Both the position numbers and the translations under genes were made by a program. This document shows positions 1,491 to 52,049 of a DNA stretch of 64,000 bases, in pieces. How positions within the stretch are numbered: position 1 is the first letter of the stretch; the number at the start of each line of letters is the position of its first letter. This DNA is from Patescibacteria group bacterium (GTDB taxonomy: Bacteria > Patescibacteriota > Patescibacteriia > JACRDY01). The stretch is from NCBI GenBank assembly GCA_041650515.1, contig JBAZLA010000001.1, positions 146,710 to 210,709 on the forward strand, given 5' to 3'. Below the pieces are notes generated by a model. The model was not told where the DNA came from, did no database searches, and saw only the letters and a list, made by a program, of their open reading frames with translations.

Positions 1491-1619
1491 TTATTAATAA
1501 AAATTAGTCTTAAATTTATCTTAGGCTATTCGGCCTTTTTTGGCAACCAATCTAAATGATTAAACAAAAAACACCCCGAGGAGTGATTTTATTCAGTACT
1601 ATATTTTTTATCGAGGTCA

Positions 1620-1745
1620 CTCAGGGCAGGCTTGCCACCCTACGGGTGGTCCCCCGTAGGGGGAAACCTGCGACCTCCGCGTCCCAAACGCGGCGCGCTA
1701 GCCCCGCCCAAAGGGCGGTCGCCCTCTGGGCGAAACTGTACGCCA
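1620..1745 (-). repeat. Degenerate tRNA-Pro-like copy with double-hairpin insertion in T-loop
   Basis: The reverse complement shares the tRNA-Pro anticodon arm (GCTAGCGCGCCGCGTTTGGGACGCGGAGGTCGCAGGTT). A 30-nt segment TCCCCCTACGGGGGACCACCCGTAGGGTGG then replaces the T-loop. The 5' part reads GCGTACAGTT[TCGCCCAGAGGGCGACCGCCCTTTGGGCGGG]GCTAGCGCG, with an insertion in the D-loop. Confidence 0.6.
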
Positions 1746-2936: not shown

Positions 2937-4586
<1,650 letters not shown>

Positions 4587-5157
4587 TTAAATACTGATAA
4601 GTTGTCCGTACACTAACAACACCAGTTGCTAATGTTTACCCCGTAGAGTCTACGGGTTTAACTCTCTCAGTAGAGTTATAAGAGAAAATAAAGTTGAATA
4701 GATAGGTTACTTCGCACTTACGATTTACTATCACTTTTCGATTGTCAATGTTCCTTTTCTCACCTCTTAATTTTTTATCAAATTAAGAGACGAAAAAACA
4801 GTGCGGGCCAAATCAACGACTTCCACTGGGGAATGTCTACTCAGCCATCACTGTTTTTCCGTCTACTTTTCCCCTGTCAGGGGAAAGTTTAGATGAATTG
4901 TAATAATGTTTTTATGGAACTTTTTATGCCTTGCCTCGCCGGTGCCCTAAAAGGGCATAGGCGGGTTATTTTTAAAGCCCTCTCATTATATACCTTTGCT
5001 AGACCCTGTCAAGGGTGAGACAACAAGCCAATAATGCACAAATTATACCCAGTCAATTTATAACCTAAATAGTAAAATAACCATTGTCCAAACCCTTGAC
5101 TAAATTGATTGTCCGTGTTACAGTTACTAATCCATTTCTCACACCAAGGAGGGCACT

Positions 5158-5541: not shown

Positions 5542-5697
5542 GGGGGTTTGGGGCGAATACGGCGCGAAGCCGAGCTCCGACCTTTTTTGATTACGCCGAG
5601 GAGCGAGGCGGGTAGAACGAGCTGGGGATGAACAACGAATCGCGCCTGATGAGCCCCAAAGCTTTTTTGGTTACTTTTTTGGCTACAAAAAAGTAAC
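5542..5697 (+). repeat. Structured intergenic repeat family, copy 1 (GGGGTTTGGGG...CCCCAAAGC TTTTTT + GTTACTTTTTTGGNTACAAAAAAGTAAC hairpin)
   Basis: It shares a conserved core with the copies at 13634, 23507, 26186, 51869 and 60850. The core is GGGGTTTGGGGCG-AATACGGCGCGAAGCCGAG...GAGCGAGGCGGGTAGAAC...AACAATGAATCGCGCC...GCCCCAAA. Confidence 0.75.
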
Positions 5698-8837: not shown

Positions 8838-8999
8838 CGCCAAGAAGATTAGTACCAACCGCCTCACCGCGGTTTTTTTAATTCTCCCCTTTTTAAGGGG
8901 AGAATTAAAATGGGGTTCTACCTCTCCTTTCTGAGGGGAGGGCAGGGTGGGGTTCTATCTCCCCCTACTAAGGGGGAGGTGGCCGCAGGCCGGAGGGGG

Positions 9000-11273
9000 T
9001 TACTTGGCGTACTGCTGCCCTTCTTCCAGTTTAATCGACAGCATTTTGGAAACACTATCATCACCCATGGTCACGCCATAAAGCACATCGCCCTTGGCCA
9101 TGGTGGTTCGATTATGAGTCACAATAATAAATTGAGTTTTGTGCGCCAGGGTTTCAACAATATTAGACAATCGTTCTGAATTGGCTTCATCCAGCGCCGC
9201 ATCCACCTCATCAAGAACAACAAAGGGGGAGGGATTGCAAGCAATAATGGCGCAGATCAAAGCAATCGCCGTCATCGCTCGCTCGCCGCCTGACAAAGTG
9301 TTGAGACTAGAAATCCTTTTGCCTGGGGGACAAGCCTTAATCTCCACCCCGCCATATTCTAATTCCTTGCTACCGTCGCCGATTCTAGCTTTTCCGCCTC
9401 CGGCGGACCCGCCGTAGGCGGGCTTGTTGACCACCTTACCACTCTCATCCAGCTCTTCTTCATCATCTTCGATCTCGATCATAATTTTTTCCAAACTCGC
9501 CTTACCGCCACCAAACAACACTTGAAAATATTCACCAAACTTAGCATTAATATTTTGAAAAGTCTCATCAAAACGCTTATGGATCTCTTCATCCAACTCG
9601 CGAATAATCTGTCGCAGACTTTCGATGGCCTGAGTTAAATCTTGATACTGCTCATTTAAAAATTCATAACGAACCTTAATCTCTTCATATTCTCTAATCG
9701 ACTCATCATCTAGACCACCGATTAACTCGAGCTGCCGTTTGAGCTTTTGAATTTTGTCATAAGCCTCAGCCATCCCGCTCTCGCCGATCGCCGGCTGCTG
9801 ACTGCTGGTTGGCAATTCAACATCTCCCATCTCTCGTTTAATCTCCCGTTCCAAATCTTCTTTTCGTGTCTCTAGTTTGGCTAGCTCAATCTTGATATCA
9901 TTAACCTTGATTGACAGATTATTAAGCTCGCTTTGCTGACCAGCAAACTGACGTTGCAGATCAAAAAATTCACCTTTTTTCTCTTGCTGTGTTAGGTTAA
10001 AATCAGCAATCGCCCGTTGGCTAGTCACTAATTCTTTAGCCACCAAACCCAAAGCCTCTTGGGTTATTTTTAGTTCCGCTTCTAATTCTTGATCAATTTT
10101 GATCTCCTCATCGGCTGGTTTCCTCACCTTACCCAACAAATCCTTAAGCCGGCCCTTGACATGATGAATTTGGTCTTTGACCTGGCCTAAGTGAACCAAT
10201 TCTTTAATCTGATCAACGTGGCTGATCAACGCTTCGTGGAGACTAATCAACTCTTCAATATACTGAGCCATCTCTTCAGCACCCAGGGGAATAAAATCCT
10301 GCTGGGCCTGCTCTTTGGCTAATTGAATTTTACTCTGCAAGATGAGCTGCCGTGACTGGAGCTGATTTTTCTTATCCAAAATCTGATTAAACTGCTGCTG
10401 TAATTTTTCAAATGCTTCCTGACCCGAATCTTCCTGCTCTAGTTGATTAAGCTTTTGTTGGATTGATCCCAAATTCTCGTGCTTAGCCAGTCGACCATCT
10501 TCAATAGCTTTAAACTCGCTCTGATATTTTTGCCAGTGTTCATTAATATCAAAATACAACTGACCATAATACTGTTGCTGGATACCGCGCAATTCCGTCT
10601 CAATCTCGCCACGCTGTTCAAGCCGCTTGACCAATCGACCGAGTGAACGATAACGCGGCCCTAATTCCTGCAAAGTCACGTCGGTTGTTTTAAGATTTTC
10701 CTCAGTCCGCAAAAGTTTATTCAGGGTCTGGTCCCGCTTGATTTGGTATTCTTTAACCCCAGCTGCCTCATCAAAAAACTCTTTACGCTCAGACTGGGTA
10801 GCCACCAAAAAATGATCCACCATGCCTTGGCCAATAACACTATAAGTCCGCTGACCAAAATTGGCCTTGGCCAATAGAATCAAAATATCCCCCAAGCGCA
10901 CCCGACTCTTATTCAATAAATATTCGCTTTCGCCGTCACGATAAAGCCGGCGGGTAATTACCAACTCAGAATAATCAATCTGAGCTTGGCCATCCTCATT
11001 ATTTAAATACAAAGAAACTTCGGCCATACCCACCCGGGATTTTTTATCCGAACCAAAAAAGATGACGTCTTCGCTCTTTTTACCCCGCAACGTCTTCATC
11101 GACTGTTCACCTAACACCCAGCGGATAGCGTCAGCAATGTTGGATTTACCGCTGCCATTAGGACCAACTACCGCTGTGATGCCTTTACCTTTACCATTAG
11201 CCGAGGGGAATTCTAAAATCGTCCGATTGGCGAACGACTTAAACCCTTGGATCTCGAGTTTTTGTAAATACAT
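9000..11273 (-). CDS. smc: SMC-family chromosome segregation ATPase, unusually short (757 aa)
   Basis: The N-terminal head carries GPNGSGKSN, the Walker A motif. A coiled-coil middle follows. The C-terminal head carries LSGGERAMTAIALICAI...VLDEVDAALD...QFIIVTHNRTTMAKGDVLYGVTM. Confidence 0.7.
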   Translation of the reverse strand: MYLQKLEIQGFKSFANRTILEFPSANGKGKGITAVVGPNGSGKSNIADAIRWVLGEQSMKTLRGKKSEDVIFFGSDKKSRVGMAEVSLYLNNEDGQAQIDYSELVITRRLYRDGESEYLLNKSRVRLGDILILLAKANFGQRTYSVIGQGMVDHFLVATQSERKEFFDEAAGVKEYQIKRDQTLNKLLRTEENLKTTDVTLQELGPRYRSLGRLVKRLEQRGEIETELRGIQQQYYGQLYFDINEHWQKYQSEFKAIEDGRLAKHENLGSIQQKLNQLEQEDSGQEAFEKLQQQFNQILDKKNQLQSRQLILQSKIQLAKEQAQQDFIPLGAEEMAQYIEELISLHEALISHVDQIKELVHLGQVKDQIHHVKGRLKDLLGKVRKPADEEIKIDQELEAELKITQEALGLVAKELVTSQRAIADFNLTQQEKKGEFFDLQRQFAGQQSELNNLSIKVNDIKIELAKLETRKEDLEREIKREMGDVELPTSSQQPAIGESGMAEAYDKIQKLKRQLELIGGLDDESIREYEEIKVRYEFLNEQYQDLTQAIESLRQIIRELDEEIHKRFDETFQNINAKFGEYFQVLFGGGKASLEKIMIEIEDDEEELDESGKVVNKPAYGGSAGGGKARIGDGSKELEYGGVEIKACPPGKRISSLNTLSGGERAMTAIALICAIIACNPSPFVVLDEVDAALDEANSERLSNIVETLAHKTQFIIVTHNRTTMAKGDVLYGVTMGDDSVSKMLSIKLEEGQQYAK

Positions 11274-13485: not shown

Positions 13486-13633
13486 ATATAAATAATCAAT
13501 TTAAGGTAAAAATATTTTACCACACTCAATCAAGTGTAACAAGCAATTAATCACCGGCGGCTTCTATTCTAAAACTATACTCTTTCCGATTTTTAGTTTT
13601 AATTTTAAAACCATAAAGATATTAATCCAGTAG

Positions 13634-13789
13634 GGGTTTGGGGCGAATATGGCGCGGAGCCGAAGTCCCCATCTGGTCGATACTGACCAGGGGACGAGGC
13701 GATTAAAACTAATTTCAAACTAAACAATGAATCGCGCCTTATAAGCCCCAAAACTTTTTTGGTTACTTTTTTGGTTGCAAAAAAGTAAC
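13634..13789 (+). repeat. Structured intergenic repeat family, copy 2 (with ~70-bp 5' preface from ~13560)
   Basis: It has the same GGGGTTTGGGGCGAATATGGCGCGGAGCCGAAG...CGCGCCTTATAAGCCCCAAAAC TTTTTTGGTTACTTTTTTGGTTGCAAAAAAGTAAC architecture. The internal hairpin GTCCCC...GGGGAC is compensatory relative to copy 5. Confidence 0.75.
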
Positions 13790-18208: not shown

Positions 18209-20749
18209 CTATCCTTCTTGACCATTTAAGACGTGTGAATAACGATAATAGAATAACTTAGCTGCCTCTGTACAAACAAAGTAAGCCACAACAACAAATA
18301 ATATCAAAATCAGATGCTGGTTAGTCGGCGCCACAAAACCAAACACCTTCTGACCAAAATGAGTATAAGGAATAATCACTGTTGTCAGTGAAGCAACCCC
18401 GGTTAGCCAGAGGATTAAACTGGCCGGACGATGAGCTTTGAAGAATGGCAAAGCTGTCCGAATAGAAAAAAGTAAAACCAATTCAGTCAAAATACTGCCG
18501 ATAAACCAGTTGGTCTGCAACACCCCCGGAGAGATTCGATAAAAAATTCCAAAAAATAAAAAGTCAAAGGCTGTGCTGACAATCCCCAAAATCATTGCCA
18601 CGGCCAAAATCTGTTTAACCTGATATTTACGTGGCTGAGCAATCTCGTTCTTATCAACATTGTCAGCAGCGATAGCAATCATCGGAAAATCTGACAGGAG
18701 GTTTAGAAGCAAAATCTGCAGCGGTAACATCGGCAAAAAATCAATGAAAAGAGAAGCAATCGCCACCGCATAAAAATTGCCGAAGTTAGAGGTTAAGGTG
18801 GCACGAATGTATTTAGTGGTATTAGCAAAAATACCCCGACCTTCCTTAATCCCATCAATAACTACCTTCAAGCTCCGCTGCAACAATATTATATCAGCGG
18901 CTTCGCGAGCAATATCAGACGCTCCCTGCACGACCAAAGAAACGCTAGCGACTTTAAGCGCCGGCGCGTCGTTGATACCTTCGCCCAAAAAACCAACCTC
19001 ATATTTTTCTTCCAAAATTTGGATAATTTTATACTTCTGTTCTGGCGACACTCGGGCAAAAACCGAATAATTATCAATTGCCTCATGTTGCTTTTTAGGC
19101 GGCAAATCGACGAACTCAGTACCGGTTATAACCGATGTTGCCGCGTCAACTAGTCCCACTTCTTTAGCGACCGCGCCGGCGACTTCTTTACTGTCGCCAG
19201 TCAAAATTTTAATTCGCACTCCCAAATCTTTAGCTTGTTTGACCGCTTGAAAAGTACTCTCCTTAATCGGATCGACAAAACTAATAACACCCAAAAATTC
19301 CATCTCTTCTTCCAGACCAGCCAACTTATCAATCGCAATCTTAGCTGTCTTAATCGACAAATTTTTTCTAGCGACTGCTAACACCCGCCGACCCTGGCTC
19401 CCCTTATCCACCAGCCATTTAGCAATCTCCTTTTGTTTGGCCGCCGAAACATTCTTAGCTAAAGACAAAACAACCTCCGGTGCGCCCCGGACAATAAGCT
19501 CATATTTTTTGTTTTTCTCGACCAGCGAGACATTACGCCGCAATTCCGGATTAAAAGGAATATCACCGATTCTAATCCACTGTTTTAGCTCTGTCTTTTT
19601 AGCTGAGGGCAGTTTATCCCACAAAGCAATATCAAAAGGATCGAGTTTCTTTTTATCCAAAGCCGTCGCCGCTAGATTGGCATATAACAAAGGATCAACA
19701 GCCCCGAGAGCATAAATCTCGTCAACAGCTAAAATATTTTCAGTGATGGTGCCGGTTTTATCAGTACACAGGACTTCGATACCGCCCAAATCTTCAATTG
19801 CCGAAAGCCTTTTGACCACTACCTTTTTTTTGGCTAGATGCAACGCACCGCGTGATAGAGAAAAGGTAGTCACTAGTGGTAAAGCCTCGGGGATGACACT
19901 AACTGCCAGGGCGATAGAAAAAACCAACAGTTCCAAAAAATTAGCACCCTGACCCTTAATCAATATATTGGCGACAAAAACCAAAACTAGCGTAACCAAG
20001 ACCAAGCGCAGAATAAAAGAACTAATTTTGGCGATGCCTTTTTCAAAAGCGCTAAAATGTCTGGTTTCTAAAGTCAAACGACTAATACCGGCCATCACTG
20101 TATTTTTACCCGTCGTTACTACCATTCCAAAACCCTTACCATTAACTACCATTGTTCCGGCAAAACCTAAATTGATTGCTTGATATATCTCTTTAGCCTC
20201 CTGCTCCAAGACTTCACTAATCTTTCTAACCGGCACTGACTCACCGGTTAAAATTGACTCGTCAACTGTCAAATTTTGCACCTCCAAAAAACGAACATCG
20301 GCCAAAATTTTATCTCCAGTCTCTAGAACCAAAATATCACCAGGCACCAGCTCGGTAGAGAGGATCACCAGCTCTTTACCATCCCGTAGTACCTTCGCCT
20401 GAGAAGTGACATAATGCTTGAGCAGTTTTAGAGTTTTTTCCGAACGATATTCCTGGCAAAAGCCCAAAATAGCGTTAATTAATAAAAATAATAAAATCAT
20501 TGAGCTATCCAAAATTTCTCCTAAAGCGAAAGTGAGAACCACCGCTGCCAGAAGTAAATAAATAAAGGGCGACTTAAATTGTCGCAATAGGATGCTCCAC
20601 CAATGGACTTGACGTGAGCCCAGTTCGTTCGGTCCAAACTTAACTAACTGCTCTTTAGCCTGGATCGGAGTTAAGCCACCAGCCAAAGAGGTTTTAAACT
20701 CGCTAACCAAATCAGCCGCCGCCTGGATAGTATAAACGTAAGGATTCAT
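18209..20749 (-). CDS. Cation-translocating P-type ATPase (type II, Ca2+/Mg2+-like)
   Basis: 846 aa with the phosphorylation motif CTDKTGTITEN, TGES, the hinge GEGINDAPALKVA and flanking transmembrane helices. Confidence 0.85.
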   Translation of the reverse strand: MNPYVYTIQAAADLVSEFKTSLAGGLTPIQAKEQLVKFGPNELGSRQVHWWSILLRQFKSPFIYLLLAAVVLTFALGEILDSSMILLFLLINAILGFCQEYRSEKTLKLLKHYVTSQAKVLRDGKELVILSTELVPGDILVLETGDKILADVRFLEVQNLTVDESILTGESVPVRKISEVLEQEAKEIYQAINLGFAGTMVVNGKGFGMVVTTGKNTVMAGISRLTLETRHFSAFEKGIAKISSFILRLVLVTLVLVFVANILIKGQGANFLELLVFSIALAVSVIPEALPLVTTFSLSRGALHLAKKKVVVKRLSAIEDLGGIEVLCTDKTGTITENILAVDEIYALGAVDPLLYANLAATALDKKKLDPFDIALWDKLPSAKKTELKQWIRIGDIPFNPELRRNVSLVEKNKKYELIVRGAPEVVLSLAKNVSAAKQKEIAKWLVDKGSQGRRVLAVARKNLSIKTAKIAIDKLAGLEEEMEFLGVISFVDPIKESTFQAVKQAKDLGVRIKILTGDSKEVAGAVAKEVGLVDAATSVITGTEFVDLPPKKQHEAIDNYSVFARVSPEQKYKIIQILEEKYEVGFLGEGINDAPALKVASVSLVVQGASDIAREAADIILLQRSLKVVIDGIKEGRGIFANTTKYIRATLTSNFGNFYAVAIASLFIDFLPMLPLQILLLNLLSDFPMIAIAADNVDKNEIAQPRKYQVKQILAVAMILGIVSTAFDFLFFGIFYRISPGVLQTNWFIGSILTELVLLFSIRTALPFFKAHRPASLILWLTGVASLTTVIIPYTHFGQKVFGFVAPTNQHLILILFVVVAYFVCTEAAKLFYYRYSHVLNGQEG

Positions 20750-20812: not shown

Positions 20813-21652
20813 TCAACTCTTGGCGACCTGTCTTAGCCGGCTAATCAGTACCTTCTCACCTCTGGTTAGTCTGCCAGTCTGGCGCGAAATATTATAATGG
20901 TGATCCGCTAATAAATATAGCCCCTGCCTACCGGCTGGGGTCAAAAATTTTAACAAACGATCCAGTTGGCGCGGACAATTGGCTAAAACCCGCAACAAGG
21001 TGGCGGTTACTGGCCGCGAGAGATTAATATTTTTAGCAACAATTTGCGGATATGACTCCAAAGCCAAATGATTGATAATTGATTCCCAAACGATTCTTTT
21101 TTTTCCTAGATCAGCAACAACAAAAAGATGAATCTTTTTTGCCCCAGCTTTAATCAACATCTGACTAACTTCCTTAGCGATTGATCCAGTAATTAAAATA
21201 TCATCAATGAGAATTATTTCTTTACCCTGAATTTTCTTTTTGTCGGCTGGACCAGCTAAAGCATAAAATTTAATTATGGCTTTTGGCCGCTTGGCCGCCG
21301 AAAGAATTAGGGCGTAATTATCAAAACGTTTTATTTTTTTAAGCCTAATTATCGGCAAGTGTAATTGCTGACTAATATTATTGGCTAAAATTTCTGCTGT
21401 CTGAGGCAGGCTCGGGCTGACTGACGAAGGATAAGCTAAGACAAATTGACGCCGGTCAAACCGACCAATAGTTTTAACAATTAGTTTTGATAATTTTTTA
21501 GAGAAATAATTAGTTTGGGTTAAAAAACCTAATTTCAAAAAAGAGAGCTTTAGTAGAATCTCTTTTTTTCGAGGATTATTAAAAATTTTAGTACCATCCA
21601 ATATACTTTTACAAATTGAGCTTGATTTTTCTTCAATCTTCTTTAATGCCAT
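20813..21652 (-). CDS. ComF-like phosphoribosyltransferase-domain protein
   Basis: A PRTase motif, GKEIILIDDILITGSIAKE, lies in the middle. The N-terminal zinc finger is absent. Confidence 0.55.
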   Translation of the reverse strand: MALKKIEEKSSSICKSILDGTKIFNNPRKKEILLKLSFLKLGFLTQTNYFSKKLSKLIVKTIGRFDRRQFVLAYPSSVSPSLPQTAEILANNISQQLHLPIIRLKKIKRFDNYALILSAAKRPKAIIKFYALAGPADKKKIQGKEIILIDDILITGSIAKEVSQMLIKAGAKKIHLFVVADLGKKRIVWESIINHLALESYPQIVAKNINLSRPVTATLLRVLANCPRQLDRLLKFLTPAGRQGLYLLADHHYNISRQTGRLTRGEKVLISRLRQVAKS

Positions 21653-21744
21653 TGAGGTCGTTGATAAATTATTTCCATCTTATAACTATTTCTTGAAAGA
21701 AGTCAACATCCCGGATGACAAATTTAATCAAGAGAATAAACTCT

Positions 21745-21775
21745 TGACTTAATCAAAAAATCCACTAAGATTGCC
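21745..21775 (+). promoter_or_regulatory. Sigma70-like promoter (TTGACT-16-TAAGAT) for candidate ncRNA
   Basis: The sequence is ttgacttaatcaaaaaatccactaagat. Confidence 0.4.
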
Positions 21776-21782
21776 CCCAGTG

Positions 21783-22128
21783 GCAACTTACCTGGAGGAT
21801 TAAAGTGACAACGTTGATCATTTCTTCGACGTTCCTCTGGGCAGCAGCACGCCTGTTCTGGTTGAGTCTTTACCAACCGAATGAGCAAACGCTGCCCTCT
21901 TGCGCCAACACTTTGACGGGGAGAATGCCCGGCATTGTTTCACTCACCGTTAGTGGCCGTCTGCCGCTGGATACTCCCGGTGGGAGAATGCCCGGCGTCA
22001 CTCACCGCGGGTGAGGTCTTGAATATCCGTTTACCTCAGCCACCAGTAAACGGAGCCTCACTCGCTTTGGAGCTTTGCTCCACCTCGGACAATTTCGCCG
22101 CGTCTCGGCAGATTGTCCTTTTTTTATT
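21783..22128 (+). ncRNA. Candidate structured ncRNA (~345 nt), GC-rich, class unknown
   Basis: There is no credible ORF. GC is about 57% in AT-rich flanks. The motif GGGAGAATGCCCGGC-N-TCACTCACCG is duplicated internally at 21919-21948 and 21978-22010. Hairpins include ccgtttac...gtaaacgg and ggagc...gctcc. It ends with the intrinsic terminator ggacaat...attgtcc plus T7 at 22087-22128. Confidence 0.35.
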
Positions 22129-22206
22129 AACAGATGATACAAACAAATAATATAGATATAATAAAGGTAGCTCATAGACTACCTCTGCATACTATGAAAC
22201 TCAATA

Positions 22207-23349
22207 CTATAGTTGCAGATAACTATAGCCAAACCAAAAGGGCTGACCTTGGTAAAATTTTTCTGACATTTCAAAATTTTCATAAGCCACCCCGGCCGTT
22301 AGTCTCTTACTACCGCAAGGGTTAATAAACCCGCCAAAATAATTCTCTCGGCCGTTAACTCGCACGGCTAAATCATCTTTGTAAGTGCCCGGATATTTCC
22401 GCCAATACTGATAAAATTTTAGTTCATCATAGTAAGGTGCCCCACTACCCAAATCGCTCACCCAGGGGCCGCTCTCATCATTATCGCTAGAAACAGTAAT
22501 ACTGCCATCAGCCGCAATTCGTAAACTGTCTAGACCAAAACTAACATACGGATAAAAACACCAGCTGCCCAACTGCTGACCACCAAATAAGTCTTCAGCG
22601 TTAGCGATACGATCTTTTAGATACAGATTGCGCAACCGACCTAGATTACCATAAGTCGCCGAAATATTAATGTATTTCAAAGACTTTGTTTTTTCTAGAG
22701 GATTGTAGCTACTGATTTTAATTTCGCGCGGTGCTTTCTTATCAATTTCAACGATGAGATAAATTTTAGCTTTGGTGTTATCAAATTCCGACAGACGAAA
22801 GACCACTCGCAACACATCATCTCTAATCTCAGCGGCGCTAGCGAGCCCCGCTGGTTTATTCTGTCCGGGATCGAGAAAATTTAAAACTTCCTGGCTAGCT
22901 TCACCTTTTTGATTAATCAATTGATCAAGATCGGCAACAAACTGGAGATTATCTGGATAAAACTCAATCCGCTCTTGCTCTGAAGCATCATATTTATTGT
23001 CCGCCGACAGTAAAGAGACGCCCAAATAATTAAAAAAATGACTCTGGCCAGTCTGATCGGTCCAACCGATACGCAATAATCCTTGGGCCCAAACACCGCC
23101 CGGTTTATAATCCATCTCAGTGCTGCTAATACCAAAAACGATCCCGTCTCTTAGCCCCCACAGCGGATTATCATTATCACTTAGTGGTTGAATCCATTCA
23201 GATTGGTTAATGGCCGGCTGGTTAGTAATCCGACTAACTGCCCGCTGCACCCAACCCGACTGCTGACCCCGGTGAACCAAACGCTGGCAACCAACAACTA
23301 ATAGCAGAATAATAATGATAAATAGCAGGCAGCAAAAAAATCGTTTCAT
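22207..23349 (-). CDS. Hypothetical lipoprotein (signal peptide + LVVGC lipobox)
   Basis: 380 aa. The N-terminus is MKRFFCCLLFIIIILLLVVGCQ. Confidence 0.5.
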   Translation of the reverse strand: MKRFFCCLLFIIIILLLVVGCQRLVHRGQQSGWVQRAVSRITNQPAINQSEWIQPLSDNDNPLWGLRDGIVFGISSTEMDYKPGGVWAQGLLRIGWTDQTGQSHFFNYLGVSLLSADNKYDASEQERIEFYPDNLQFVADLDQLINQKGEASQEVLNFLDPGQNKPAGLASAAEIRDDVLRVVFRLSEFDNTKAKIYLIVEIDKKAPREIKISSYNPLEKTKSLKYINISATYGNLGRLRNLYLKDRIANAEDLFGGQQLGSWCFYPYVSFGLDSLRIAADGSITVSSDNDESGPWVSDLGSGAPYYDELKFYQYWRKYPGTYKDDLAVRVNGRENYFGGFINPCGSKRLTAGVAYENFEMSEKFYQGQPFWFGYSYLQL

Positions 23350-23506: not shown

Positions 23507-23712
23507 GGGGTTTGGGGCAAATACGGCGCGAAGCCGAAGCTCCGACCTTTTCTGATTACGCCAAGGAGCGAGGCGGGTTAGTCCGTAGACAGCTAAACAA
23601 TGAATCGCGCCTTATGAGCCCCAAAACTTTTTTGGTCCGCCTAGACTCGCTAGGCGAGGCTGGTTACTTTTTTGCCCGCCTTGCCGGCGAGGCAGGGTTA
23701 CAAAAAAGTAAC
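23507..23712 (+). repeat. Structured intergenic repeat family, copy 3 (preface from ~23440; extra hairpin inserted in terminal loop)
   Basis: It reads GGGGTTTGGGGCAAATACGGCGCGAAGCCGAAGCTCCGACC...GAGCGAGGCGGGTTAGTCCG...AATGAATCGCGCCTTATGAGCCCCAAAAC TTTTTTGG...GTTACAAAAAAGTAAC. Confidence 0.75.
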
Positions 23713-31639: not shown

Positions 31640-31672
31640 TAAAACAGCCCCGTAAAACGGGGCTGTTTTATT
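31640..31672. terminator. Bidirectional rho-independent terminator
   Basis: The stem aaaacagccccgtaaaacggggctgtttt sits between convergent genes. Confidence 0.6.
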
Positions 31673-31687
31673 ACTTCGTCGAAGGTA

Positions 31688-31888
31688 TTAGACGCGGGTA
31701 ACGTTGACCGCGCGAGGACCCTTTTCAGAATCTTCGACGTCAAATGTCACAGCATCACCTTCATGAAGAGAGTTGAATTCGACACCTTGAAGGCTTGAGG
31801 AGTGAAAAAACACATCCTTGCCATCGCCATCATCGGGGGCGATAAAGCCAAAGCCTTTGTCGGTCAGTCTTTTAATCTTTCCGTTCAT
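31688..31888 (-). CDS. cspA: Cold-shock protein (CspA family)
   Basis: MNGKIKRLTDKGFGFIAPDDGDGKDVFFHSSSL carries the RNP1/RNP2 motifs. The start is placed at the internal Met. Confidence 0.85.
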   Translation of the reverse strand: MNGKIKRLTDKGFGFIAPDDGDGKDVFFHSSSLQGVEFNSLHEGDAVTFDVEDSEKGPRAVNVTRV

Positions 31889-32118
31889 AATGAGAAAATA
31901 GTTGATTAACTGCAAAGTGGGTTGTGCCGCAGAAATTCGACTGCTTTCTACTTATGGCAAACTTTTTGCACCAGCAATATACCATATAACCAAAAACAAG
32001 TCAACCACCAACCAGCAACTGAGAAAAATATGACTAAAATGTTATTAATAATATTGACAAGAATTATCAAATGATATACCATAAAGCATCCACACTAAAC
32101 CAGGTTGGGAGATCCAGA

Positions 32119-34815: not shown

Positions 34816-35058
34816 ATGACCAAAGATACGGGCCTGCAATGCCGCACCTGCGGCGGCGCTCTCTGGATCCAGATTTCGCCGGAAGACCTGGAATCGCCAG
34901 TGGCCATGGTCCACAACGACAGCTCAGGTGAGCCGTGCCACGGCTCACTCCAGCCGGTAAAGGCCACCTGCCAAAAGTGCAGAGAGACCTTTATCTTGGA
35001 CCGACTGATCCACAATAAAAGAGGTGTCCTTTGCCCTAAATGTCGTCCTACAAAATAG
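34816..35058 (+). CDS. Cys-rich zinc-ribbon protein (3x CxxC), GC-rich island
   Basis: 80 aa with the ribosome-binding site aaaaggagggctagaATG. It contains CRTCGG...C..C...CQKC...CPKC. The terminator cagagccccttacggggctctg is downstream. Confidence 0.5.
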   Translation: MTKDTGLQCRTCGGALWIQISPEDLESPVAMVHNDSSGEPCHGSLQPVKATCQKCRETFILDRLIHNKRGVLCPKCRPTK

Positions 35059-35528
35059 GACCGAGCCATTTAGGGCTTTTTTATTTAAAATAAGCTAAAA
35101 TAACAGAGCCCCTTACGGGGCTCTGTCAGTTCAACGAAGAATCGTTAGAACTTAAGCAGCTTGATCACCGCCAGCAGGGGCGGCGGTTTCCTCACTTGGA
35201 GTCTGAGGAGCAGCGGCTTGATCGCCACCAGCAGGGGCGGCCTGAGTGTTTTCGTCATCAAGATAAATCATTTCTTTGTGGTTATTTATTAGTATAGGTT
35301 TACACTAAACCTTAAAGCTTGTTAAGTATAACAGACTCAACTATTCTGTCAACCCATCAAAGCAAAAAATGTCTAAAATTAAACAAAATTCTAGTCAAAC
35401 AATAGTGATGGCTATTGACCAGATAAGAGAAGATAAGCCCACTACAATAGCTTCCTATTTTTAGCTAGTTGACAGAATATAGTTATGGGTATATATTCAT
35501 AATAGATCTAATAAATAATCTCAAATGT

Positions 35529-35705
35529 ATGCCTAACATGGATGGAACCGGCCCAGCGAGCCAGGGACCCAAAACCGGCGGTCAGCGTGGTAATTGCCCC
35601 GGCGCTGTTCCACGCTCCCGACCTTTTGATGGCCGGGGCGGCGGTCTTGGCCAAGGTCGCGGACGACGCGGTAATGGTCGCGGTCAGAACTTAGGCCAAG
35701 CCTAA
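35529..35705 (+). CDS. DUF5320-like small Gly/Arg-rich protein (MPNMDGTGPASQGPKTGGQRGNCPG...)
   Basis: The N-terminal MxxxDGTGPxxxGPxTGxxxGxC pattern is followed by an RGG-rich tail. The terminator aaacccgcacc...ggtgcgggttt is downstream. Confidence 0.5.
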   Translation: MPNMDGTGPASQGPKTGGQRGNCPGAVPRSRPFDGRGGGLGQGRGRRGNGRGQNLGQA

Positions 35706-35799
35706 AAAAATATAAACCCGCACCTTTTACTCGGTTACCCTAAGGTGCGGGTTTATATCACCAATTTAACAATTAAAGTAATAAATATCAACCAACTAT

Positions 35800-36078
35800 A
35801 TGCCCCGACCAAGAAACTGCCGTCAGATTTTTATCCAACCCAAAACACTATTCTATAAACCTCAAGGTATCCCATTAAGAGACCTGGCAATCGTTGAGCT
35901 TCATCTAGAAGAACTGGAAGCGTTGAGATTAAAAAATTTAGAAAATTTGGAACAAACCGAGGCGGCAGCGCGGATGAATATTTCACAAAGCACCTTTCAA
36001 CGAACCCTCTCTGCTGCTTACAAAAAAATCAGCCTGGCTCTGGTTGAGGGTAAGGCAATCGCTATCCAGAAAGAGTAA
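35800..36078 (+). CDS. DUF134/UPF0251-family putative DNA-binding protein
   Basis: 92 aa. The sequence MPRPRNCRQIFIQPKTLFYKPQGIPLRDLAIVELHLEELEALRLKNLENLEQTEAAARMNISQSTFQRTL matches the family signature MPRPxxCRxI...P....FKP.GIP. Confidence 0.7.
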   Translation: MPRPRNCRQIFIQPKTLFYKPQGIPLRDLAIVELHLEELEALRLKNLENLEQTEAAARMNISQSTFQRTLSAAYKKISLALVEGKAIAIQKE

Positions 36079-50283: not shown

Positions 50284-50312
50284 GATAGGGTGTCAAATTT
50301 ATGATATACTAA
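50284..50312 (+). promoter_or_regulatory. Sigma70-like promoter (TTGATA-17-TATACT)
   Basis: The sequence is ttgatagggtgtcaaatttatgatatact. Confidence 0.4.
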
Positions 50313-50319
50313 TAGTAGA

Positions 50320-50740
50320 TAACTTTTGTTCTTTCTAATCTTTTAGGGAAATGAACCGAATTGAGTTTGTTATTGGATGATTCGACAACAAATCAATCCT
50401 GAGTCCGCCTATGGCAGACGAAGGATCTAGTTGGGTTTATTTCTCTCTCACCCACTCGGTCTTTTTGGAGGCCGCAACCCTCCGCTAAAACAAAAAACAA
50501 AAACGGGCTACACCCTAAACCAGTCACTAGCCCAGACCAGGTGAGTGAGCGACGCGTAACTCAGTTGCAAGTAACGCCCAACGACCTAGAGGTTAAGTTC
50601 TATCCTAGCCCTATAAAAAAGGGCTTAGATAGCGGACCTGTGGGTCCTGTGGGGCGTCTAAAGTGCCTACTATTTATAAAATATCTCATCCAGAGTGGTG
50701 AGGGGGCGCTTCGGCGCCCCCTCTTTTTTTACTTTAAATT
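50320..50740 (+). ncRNA. Candidate ncRNA (~420 nt) bounded by promoter and strong terminator; class unknown
   Basis: No convincing ORF. The listed 81-aa ORF reads through the terminator. A strong terminator, gagggggcgcttcggcgccccctc plus T7, lies at 50700-50737. Internal hairpins are present, including atcctgagtccgcc...ggcagacgaaggat. Confidence 0.3.
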
Positions 50741-51868: not shown

Positions 51869-52049
51869 GTTGGGGTCTGGGGCGGATGCGGCGCCGAGTC
51901 CCGCCCCGGCCTCTTTGGTCTTTCCTTAGGGGCGGGACGGGTAGAACGAACTAAAGTTCAACAATGAATCGCGCCTCATTATGTCTCTTGGCGCCAAGAG
52001 ACATAATCCCCAGGACTTTTTTGCTACTTTTTTAGTCATAAAAAAGTAG
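51869..52049 (+). repeat. Structured intergenic repeat family, copy 5 (divergent; hairpin GTCCCGCCCC/GGGGCGGGAC)
   Basis: It reads GGTTGGGGTCTGGGGCGGATGCGGCGCCGAG...GGGCGGGACGGGTAGAACG...AACAATGAATCGCGCC...GACTTTTTTGCTACTTTTTTAGTCATAAAAAAGTAG. Confidence 0.7.

Follow-up and report, generated by a model that had tools for sequence, protein, structure and literature searches.

The DNA analysed here (the window) is a stretch of 64,000 nt drawn from a 472,517-bp contig (JBAZLA010000001.1) of the metagenome-assembled genome (MAG) of a Patescibacteria group bacterium. The element under study lies within a 554-nt spacer (21653..22206) whose two flanking genes are both encoded on the minus strand. 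In our judgement there is an even chance that it is an independently transcribed orphan structured small RNA (sRNA) of ~345 nt encoded on the plus strand. The genes and signals at the locus, including an open reading frame (ORF) that overlaps the element, are as follows.

18209..20749, minus strand: gene for an MgtA-type P-type ATPase (Mg2+ ATPase), following the phosphoribosyltransferase gene
20813..21652, minus strand: phosphoribosyltransferase (PRTase)/ComF-like gene, to the left of the element
21744..21771, plus strand: sigma-70-like promoter TTGACT-16-TAAGAT, with a predicted start at ~21777-21779
21755..21783, minus strand: terminator-like hairpin CCACUGGGG-GCAA-UCUUAGUGG (hairpin 21783..21762) followed by U6, overlapping the plus-strand -10 box
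21778..22125, plus strand: predicted transcript of ~348 nt, with a GC-rich body
21805..22014, plus strand: ORF69, with a GTG start 6 nt after GGAGG (21794-98), a weakly hydrophobic N-terminus and no homologues, called as a gene nowhere
22087..22118, plus strand, with T7 at 22119..22125: intrinsic terminator GGACAAUUU..AGAUUGUCC, a 13-bp interrupted stem of -16.1 kcal/mol
22207..23349, minus strand: gene for a 380-aa protein with no Pfam domain, to the right of the element

The body of the element (21778..22118) contains 55.7% GC, compared with 32% and 25% in its flanks and 43.7% in the whole window. An earlier interpretation made from the letters alone (the sequence-only reading) had put the GC content of this body at 57% in AT-rich surroundings, which is close to the measured value. 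Enrichment of structured non-coding RNAs (ncRNAs) in long GC-rich intergenic regions is a known criterion for finding them (PMC8723152, PMC6429828). The TTGACT-16-TAAGAT site that had been described is indeed present on the plus strand, though only 9 of 12 positions match, and it ends 6-8 nt upstream of the GC island. Promoter-like sites are common here, being frequent in the AT-rich spacer (6 in this 1 kb vs 2.1 expected). Two further observations concern this site: a minus-strand site ahead of the PRTase gene (21706..21677) has the identical hexamers TTGACT/TAAGAT and is divergent from that of the element, and a 13-nt inverted repeat (21722-34/21741-53) overlaps the plus-strand -35 box.

At the other end of the element, the intrinsic terminator and T7 run recognized in the sequence-only reading hold up. 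When the sequence upstream of all 242 runs of T>=6 in the window was folded, this plus-strand terminator had the most stable upstream structure of all. Its hairpin can work in the plus direction only, because no U-run follows it on the minus strand. The nearest plus-strand ORF end upstream of it is 3.9 kb away; thus, for the terminator to be used, a plus-strand transcript must start inside the spacer. Furthermore, the next gene downstream of the plus-strand element is convergent, so the element does not have the downstream same-strand gene that a riboswitch or leader would have. With its strong terminator, its weak promoter match and no support for coding (although ORF69, discussed below, remains a rival), the element has the makings of a stand-alone sRNA.

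The 348-nt plus-strand RNA has a predicted minimum free energy of -142.5 kcal/mol (z = -6.1 vs dinucleotide shuffles), and most helices of this fold have a pair probability >0.9, bearing out the several clean hairpins that had been claimed for it. From 5' to 3' the layout consists of a small 5' hairpin, a GAGG/CCUC closing helix, domains 1-3, a short hairpin and the terminator. The parts of this predicted fold, all on the plus strand, are listed below.

21795..21798: 5' strand (GAGG) of the closing helix, pairing with CCUC at 22083..22086 with probability 0.96, and lying within the GGAGG that precedes ORF69
21800..21916: domain 1, with an 8-bp outer helix (21800-07/21909-16) and helix probabilities of 0.71-1.00
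21919..22006: domain 2, a long hairpin formed by pairing of repeat copy 1 (AUGCC.GGCAUU) with copy 2 (AAUGCC.GGCGU)
22007..22065: domain 3, with an 11-bp helix GCGGGUGAGGU/GCCUCACUCGC of probability 0.99
22068..22082: small hairpin UGGAGC-UUU-GCUCCA, probability 0.96

The outer helix of domain 1 encloses a hairpin (21810-21833) and a long irregular hairpin (21839-21897), leaving the linkers CCUCU (21834-38) and UCUUGCGCCAA (21898-21908) unpaired. Inside the helix of domain 3 is a perfectly paired hairpin of 9 bp (22026-34/22046-54), whose loop of 11 nt is CUCAGCCACCA (22035-45).

Domain 2 is built from an internal repeat, which comprises two units on the plus strand identified by exact repeat comparison.

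21919..21949: repeat unit 1, consisting of GGGAGAATGCCCGGC, ATTGTT and TCACTCACCG
21982..22007: repeat unit 2, consisting of GGGAGAATGCCCGGC, G and TCACTCACCG

The 15-nt GGGAGAATGCCCGGC thus occurs at 21919 and 21982 and the 10-nt TCACTCACCG at 21940 and 21998, with spacers of 6 and 1 nt between them. The tandem motif of the sequence-only reading is therefore present as exact repeats, the first of them where it had been placed (21919); the second lies at 21982 and not at 21978, and neither spacer is the N3 that had been given. An exact repeat of 15 nt was matched in none of 2000 shuffles and is far beyond chance. Identity between the units ends abruptly outside the 15-nt and 10-nt blocks, and such a sharp boundary of similarity points to selection on the motif and away from a recent block duplication. 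In addition, the two copies of TCACTCACCG lie in different reading frames, which argues for a motif at the level of nucleic acid over a protein repeat. Because the 15-nt motif holds a quasi-palindrome (AAUGCC-C-GGCAUU), two direct copies of it can pair with each other into the pseudo-symmetric stem of domain 2.

Two spaced copies of a palindromic motif also recall a CRISPR array, and the units could be read as a degenerate mini-array in which a repeat of 31 nt and one cut short to 26 nt flank a spacer of 32 nt. The 63-nt period, the palindromic repeat core and the degenerate last repeat would suit such an array. However, arrays have at least 3 near-identical repeats and here there are only two copies, of which the second has lost the 3' arm of the stem by a 5-nt internal deletion; no AT-rich leader precedes them, the sequence upstream being GC-rich and structured; and the repeat pattern is found in no array in genome, metagenome or viral contigs, each match being single. 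A CRISPR mini-array was rejected on the grounds of the two copies with their 5-nt indel and the lack of an array elsewhere in these contig scans, and is hardly credible.

Assignment of the element to the plus strand is favored by the promoter-like site, by the strong one-directional terminator, and by the z value of -6.1, vs -4.2 on the minus strand. The minus strand has claims of its own. It could be the functional one, either as a long structured 3' untranslated region of the 380-aa gene or, for the PRTase-MgtA operon, as a 5' leader or a sensor resembling a riboswitch, with the hairpin at 21783..21762 and its U6 as terminator or expression platform. This left-end hairpin, which contains three G-U pairs, reaches -10.2 kcal/mol on the minus strand but only -3.9 kcal/mol on the plus strand, is followed on the former by U6, ranks 16th among the 242 T-runs and is intergenic; 447 nt separate it from the 380-aa ORF upstream, and the presence of this hairpin implies that minus-strand transcripts from the 380-aa gene may cross the element. 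The minus strand also folds well (z = -4.2), and the genes downstream on that strand encode a phosphoribosyltransferase and an MgtA-type Mg2+ ATPase, which are often under the control of leader RNAs. However, the fold is weaker in z than that of the plus strand, no minus-strand promoter-like site is found within 22126..22206, and the minus-strand hairpin is followed by a promoter-like site of the PRTase gene itself (21706..21677). At E<=10 neither strand matches the M-box or any other riboswitch. Of the six MgtA-homologue loci, none has the gene order of the window; in the three whose upstream spacers were read, these spacers are AT-rich, and the loci contain neither an Rfam family nor a sequence resembling the element. 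A functional minus strand would, moreover, leave the strong plus-strand terminator without a purpose. On balance a minus-strand element is unlikely, though by no means negligible.

The sequence-only reading held that there is no ORF in the element, which is too strong: the GTG frame of ORF69 (69 codons, 21805..22014) follows GGAGG at a distance of 6 nt and is overlapped by a TTG frame of 71 codons (ORF71). The element could then be the mRNA of a small peptide, for example a hok-like type I toxin message, or a frameshifted and decaying small gene. As a hok-like message it would be a highly folded RNA of ~350 nt in which pairing between the 5' and 3' ends shuts off the ribosome-binding site, the other component of the system being a short antisense RNA that stops at the minus-strand terminator. 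Several features are consistent with a peptide: the GGAGG (21794-98) with its 6-nt spacer and the GTG of an open 69-codon frame; the moderate hydrophobicity of the N-terminal 22 residues; the pairing of GAGG with CCUC near the 3' end (probability 0.96), the GTG being paired too; and the spacing of the 15-nt repeats, which are 63 nt or 21 codons apart and hence in frame (GRMPG twice). Without the spacer G at 21997, ORF69 would continue in the frame of ORF71, and all three TCACTC motifs would read SLT/SLT/SLA; the minus-strand terminator overlaps the 5' end. Compared with hok-type mRNAs, the element is alike in being a folded RNA in their ~350-400 nt range in which 5'-3' pairing occludes GGAGG, with a small ORF that has a hydrophobic N-terminus and an opposite-strand terminator that overlaps the 5' end of the element; it differs in showing no toxin-family homology, weak hydrophobicity, a closing helix of only 4 bp, no antisense promoter and an ORF that has not been called.

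Searches for a protein give no support to this alternative. A phmmer search with ORF69 against 1.84 billion representative proteins returned no genuine homologue, its three matches, identical at 8 of 24 residues, being to short repeats within giant proteins. Pfam gave no match at E<=10 to any of six small ORFs, ORF69 included. The gene tables of the two records that carry the 554-nt gap both leave it empty, and an exact look-up of the ORF translations among 15 billion proteins found none of them, although that collection contains the two neighbouring proteins from four sources; ORF69 has thus been called by none of the pipelines behind NCBI, JGI, ENA and Logan. The hydropathy of ORF69 peaks at 1.2-1.3, and transmembrane helices usually lie above this value. 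Its frame contrast (0.14) is matched by that of the overlapping ORF71 (0.13), and both cannot be coding. The joined frame would run across the terminator hairpin and the T7 run, and a search of 21790..21900 found no minus-strand promoter that could drive an antisense RNA. For GC-rich small ORFs of this genome, neither codon log-odds nor frame contrast separates coding from non-coding frames. A separate 1.4-kb plus-strand stretch of the window without a long ORF (34816..36077) contains small GC-rich genes: one for an 80-aa four-cysteine zinc-ribbon-like protein, one for a Gly/Arg-rich 55-aa protein that is DUF5320-like by eye, and a probable third small ORF at ~35801..36077 that may be DUF134-like, a guess from the DUF5320-DUF134 gene pair found in another locus (L037). 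These small genes show that, in this genome, coding sequence can also form GC-rich islands. Overall, the element is quite unlikely to be a small-peptide message.

The length, stand-alone layout and GC-richness of the element would also fit rnpB or ssrA, and a diverged housekeeping RNA (RNase P RNA, tmRNA, 6S or SRP RNA) was therefore weighed as well. RNase P RNAs of the Candidate Phyla Radiation (CPR) are diverged, 10 of 35 having been missed at standard Rfam thresholds (Lui et al., PMC8172020), and for this reason the element was also inspected by eye for RNase P features. Searches with Rfam 15 gave no match at the element when the whole window was scanned at gathering thresholds, no housekeeping RNA over the whole window at E<=5, and no family, only terminator-like noise, at E<=10 on either strand of 901 nt or of the 366-nt element alone; ARAGORN found no tmRNA in the whole window. 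An Rfam scan was the check that the sequence-only reading had proposed, and even at these relaxed thresholds it assigns the element to no common family. The absence of RNase P and tmRNA hallmarks reported in that reading is upheld by Rfam and ARAGORN alike.

Inspection for RNase P features leads to the same result. The P4 helix forms between CR-I (GGAAAGUCCGGG) and CR-V (ACAGAAxCCGGCUUA). Strings resembling CR-I (GAGGAUUAAAGU at 21795) and CR-V (AGAAUGCCCGGCAUU at 21922) are present; however, P4 cannot form, because the plus strand has CCCGG three times (in CCCGGC blocks) but no CCGGG. The sole CR-I-like string lies ~17 nt from the predicted 5' end, so that there is no room for P1-P3, while the CR-V-like string occurs twice, in mid-molecule, with ~190 nt after it. 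The ends of the element are paired only by the 4-bp GAGG/CCUC helix, with no P1 pairing beyond it. The element is therefore like RNase P RNA (rnpB; RF00010/RF00011) in being ~350 nt long, stand-alone, GC-rich and multi-domain, with its own promoter and terminator, and unlike it in having no P4, misplaced CR-I and CR-V strings, an end pairing of 4 bp, and no Rfam signal at E<=10.

Each candidate family was rejected in turn: RNase P RNA for want of an RF00010/RF00011 match, of P4, of correctly placed CR-I and CR-V and of P1 end pairing; tmRNA because ARAGORN and Rfam (E<=10) are negative and there is no tRNA-like domain, nor a tRNA-like 5' or 3' end; 6S RNA because the 348-nt fold is multi-branched, where 6S is a single long bubble-containing hairpin, and has no RF00013 match at E<=10; and SRP RNA, T-box and M-box because they have no Rfam match at E<=10. 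With 6S and other protein-sequestering sRNAs the element shares a stand-alone layout of the abundant type and a repeated motif as a possible protein-binding site, but 6S is ~180 nt long, with a central bubble in its hairpin, and the repeats of the element pair mutually and are not displayed in loops. The element is not RNase P RNA, tmRNA, 6S or SRP RNA as these are recognized, and the suggestion of a highly divergent RNase P RNA or tmRNA, made in the sequence-only reading, falls with the lack of a match at E<=10, the impossibility of P4 and the negative ARAGORN result; a housekeeping RNA diverged beyond such recognition is very improbable. What stands of that reading is its principal claim, a self-contained structured non-coding unit outside known families, which is the best-supported interpretation of the element.

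Relatives of the element were sought in large collections, in syntenic loci and with models of its structure. The large-collection scans used exact patterns built on the repeat pair, and the collections searched hold no close relative of this genome; they gave 5 matches in genome contigs, 20 in metagenome contigs and 0 in viral contigs, and nhmmer found in these matches no similarity to the element beyond the pattern itself. The three most motif-like matches (L017, L024 and L032) are inside long ORFs, and the matches as a whole are due to chance or to coding sequence. A blastn search in distant mode against plasmids and phages found no match to the element, and a covariance model of domains 2 and 3, run over the window and 12 further loci, recovered the element alone. 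As for the neighbouring genes, the PRTase finds only itself and one 33%-identical match, with no close homologue. Six Patescibacteria loci with MgtA-like ATPase homologues of 55-65% identity were fetched, none of which shares the gene order; in the first three, Rfam and nhmmer found nothing element-like, and the upstream spacers are AT-rich.

The 380-aa protein has its closest homologues, of 40-62% identity, on contigs with archaeal genes, one of them annotated as Bathyarchaeota. Their neighbourhoods include archaeal flagellin, tRNA-intron endonuclease, PolB and FEN1, and this archaeal context suggests that the 380-aa gene arrived by inter-domain transfer. The element is not seen in these loci, and nhmmer finds no similarity to it there.

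Several of these results, together with others given above, weigh against an independently transcribed sRNA. There is no evidence of conservation, since the only other copy of the element (Logan SRR8542065) is 100% identical, and synteny via all three neighbouring genes yielded no homologue. The fold, when compared with 348-nt windows of this genome (n=96, mean z = -1.9, standard deviation 2.0), is only at about the 4th percentile in z, 4 of the 96 control windows being lower. The plus-strand promoter match, at 9 of 12 positions, is weak evidence by itself. The strand is left undecided by the energies and G-U counts of mirrored structures, which are nearly symmetric between the strands, and the minus-strand terminator at the left end is a credible one. 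GGAGG, a 6-nt spacer and GTG do open the 69-codon frame of ORF69, which tests of codon usage cannot rule out because real-looking GC-rich small ORFs in the window score alike. Finally, the mode of action proposed below is something that we only infer.

Some of the same results would be expected if the element were a non-functional GC-rich remnant, decayed or horizontally acquired, that folds through its composition and internal duplication alone. No conservation is detectable in the pattern scans or in plasmid and phage blastn, foreign DNA appears to have entered the neighbourhood with the 380-aa gene, and the genome background is itself strongly structured, as the 4 of 96 control windows that fold better than the element attest. 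On the other hand, nhmmer detects no similarity to the archaeal loci, there is no protein or Pfam match in any frame, and the identity of the repeats is confined to sharp motif blocks. In addition, a promoter-like site and the strongest terminator in the window fall exactly at the GC island, an arrangement unexpected for a random remnant. An origin as such a remnant is accordingly regarded as unlikely.

Among known classes of candidate, the element recalls those obtained from GC-rich intergenic regions by the GC-IGR/DIMPL approach (PMC6429828, PMC8632094, PMC11109978, PMC8723152), being, like them, a sharply GC-enriched core in a 554-nt intergenic region of an AT-richer genome, with no coding signal and a stable multi-helix fold. 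It differs in that those candidates become motifs once covariation among homologues has been found, whereas the element is a single-sequence candidate. It belongs to no known family and, if real, is a new and so far single-member sRNA.

If the element is such an sRNA, the RNA would be made from the plus strand and would act in trans. A role as a structured scaffold, centred on the helix formed by the duplicated motif, seems most likely from the predicted fold. The pseudo-symmetric duplex of domain 2 (AAUGCC-C-GGCAUU against the second copy) may serve as a site of protein recognition or of processing, for which a dimeric double-stranded RNA-binding protein or RNase III would be candidate partners. 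The single-stranded C/U-rich segments (21834-38, 21898-21908 and 22035-45) would be free to pair with Shine-Dalgarno-like sequences. A bolder proposal, and something of a long shot, is that the element is the founding member of an undescribed class of large (~350 nt) structured ncRNAs specific to a barely sampled Patescibacteria lineage, with the duplicated GGGAGAAUGCCCGGC helix as its core, perhaps a protein-binding or catalytic housekeeping RNA.

The element is not the only RNA-like unit in the window. A second stand-alone sRNA-like unit of ~410 nt, at ~50310..50730 on the plus strand, has a promoter TTGATA-17-TATACT with an upstream TG (10 of 12 positions) and a terminator GAGGGGGCGCTTCGGCGCCCCCTC followed by T7, and is matched by neither Rfam nor ARAGORN; within it, AGGTGAGTGA (50539..50548) is complementary to the TCACTCACC motif that is repeated in the element studied here. 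A GC-rich family of four copies, each ~125-160 nt and on the plus strand (5543..5670, 13633..13760, 23507..23645 and 51870..52022), follows the pattern GGGGTYTGGGGC...ACGGCGCG...AACAATGAATCGCGCCT...CCCCA..ACTTTTTTG; its consensus fold has 32 pairs, 7 of them with compensatory changes, it has no Rfam match, and it looks like a multi-copy structured sRNA or a repeat element. Three tandem CTCCCC..GGGGAG hairpins separated by TGGGGTTCTA lie at 8880..9000 on the plus strand, just past the end of a gene, and are overlapped by the 348-nt segment 8601..8948, which has the most negative fold z in the 64-kb window (-8.8). On the minus strand, 31640..31993 resembles the cspA thermoregulator of Rfam, at 49.3 bits (E = 1.5e-9), which is below the gathering score of 78.

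Near the left end of the window, the 16S rRNA gene (2937..4590, minus strand) spans 1654 nt vs the 1533 positions of the model, i.e., it has insertions; downstream of it are genes for tRNA-Ile, tRNA-Phe and tRNA-Pro, and no 23S gene comes next within the window. Beside this tRNA cluster, at 1610..1745 on the minus strand, is a very GC-rich tRNA-like sequence with apparent insertions that is called by neither ARAGORN nor Rfam and may be a tRNA gene with an intron or insertion; tRNA genes of this kind have been described for Patescibacteria (PMC13011429).

The occurrence in the window of other sRNA-like units with a promoter and a terminator indicates that this organism appears to encode stand-alone GC-rich RNAs, and the host genome is reduced and, judging from the window, unusually rich in GC-rich RNA genes. 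As a single-sequence candidate the element is of limited value at present, and the wider pattern of GC-rich sRNA-like units may be the more useful lead, making the MAG a good target for an ncRNA survey. If real, the element would be a large structured RNA of unassigned function in a genome of the CPR/Patescibacteria, whose genomes are very small and whose repertoire of non-coding RNA is almost unexplored, and an RNA of 350 nt that is kept in so small a genome would probably do something important.

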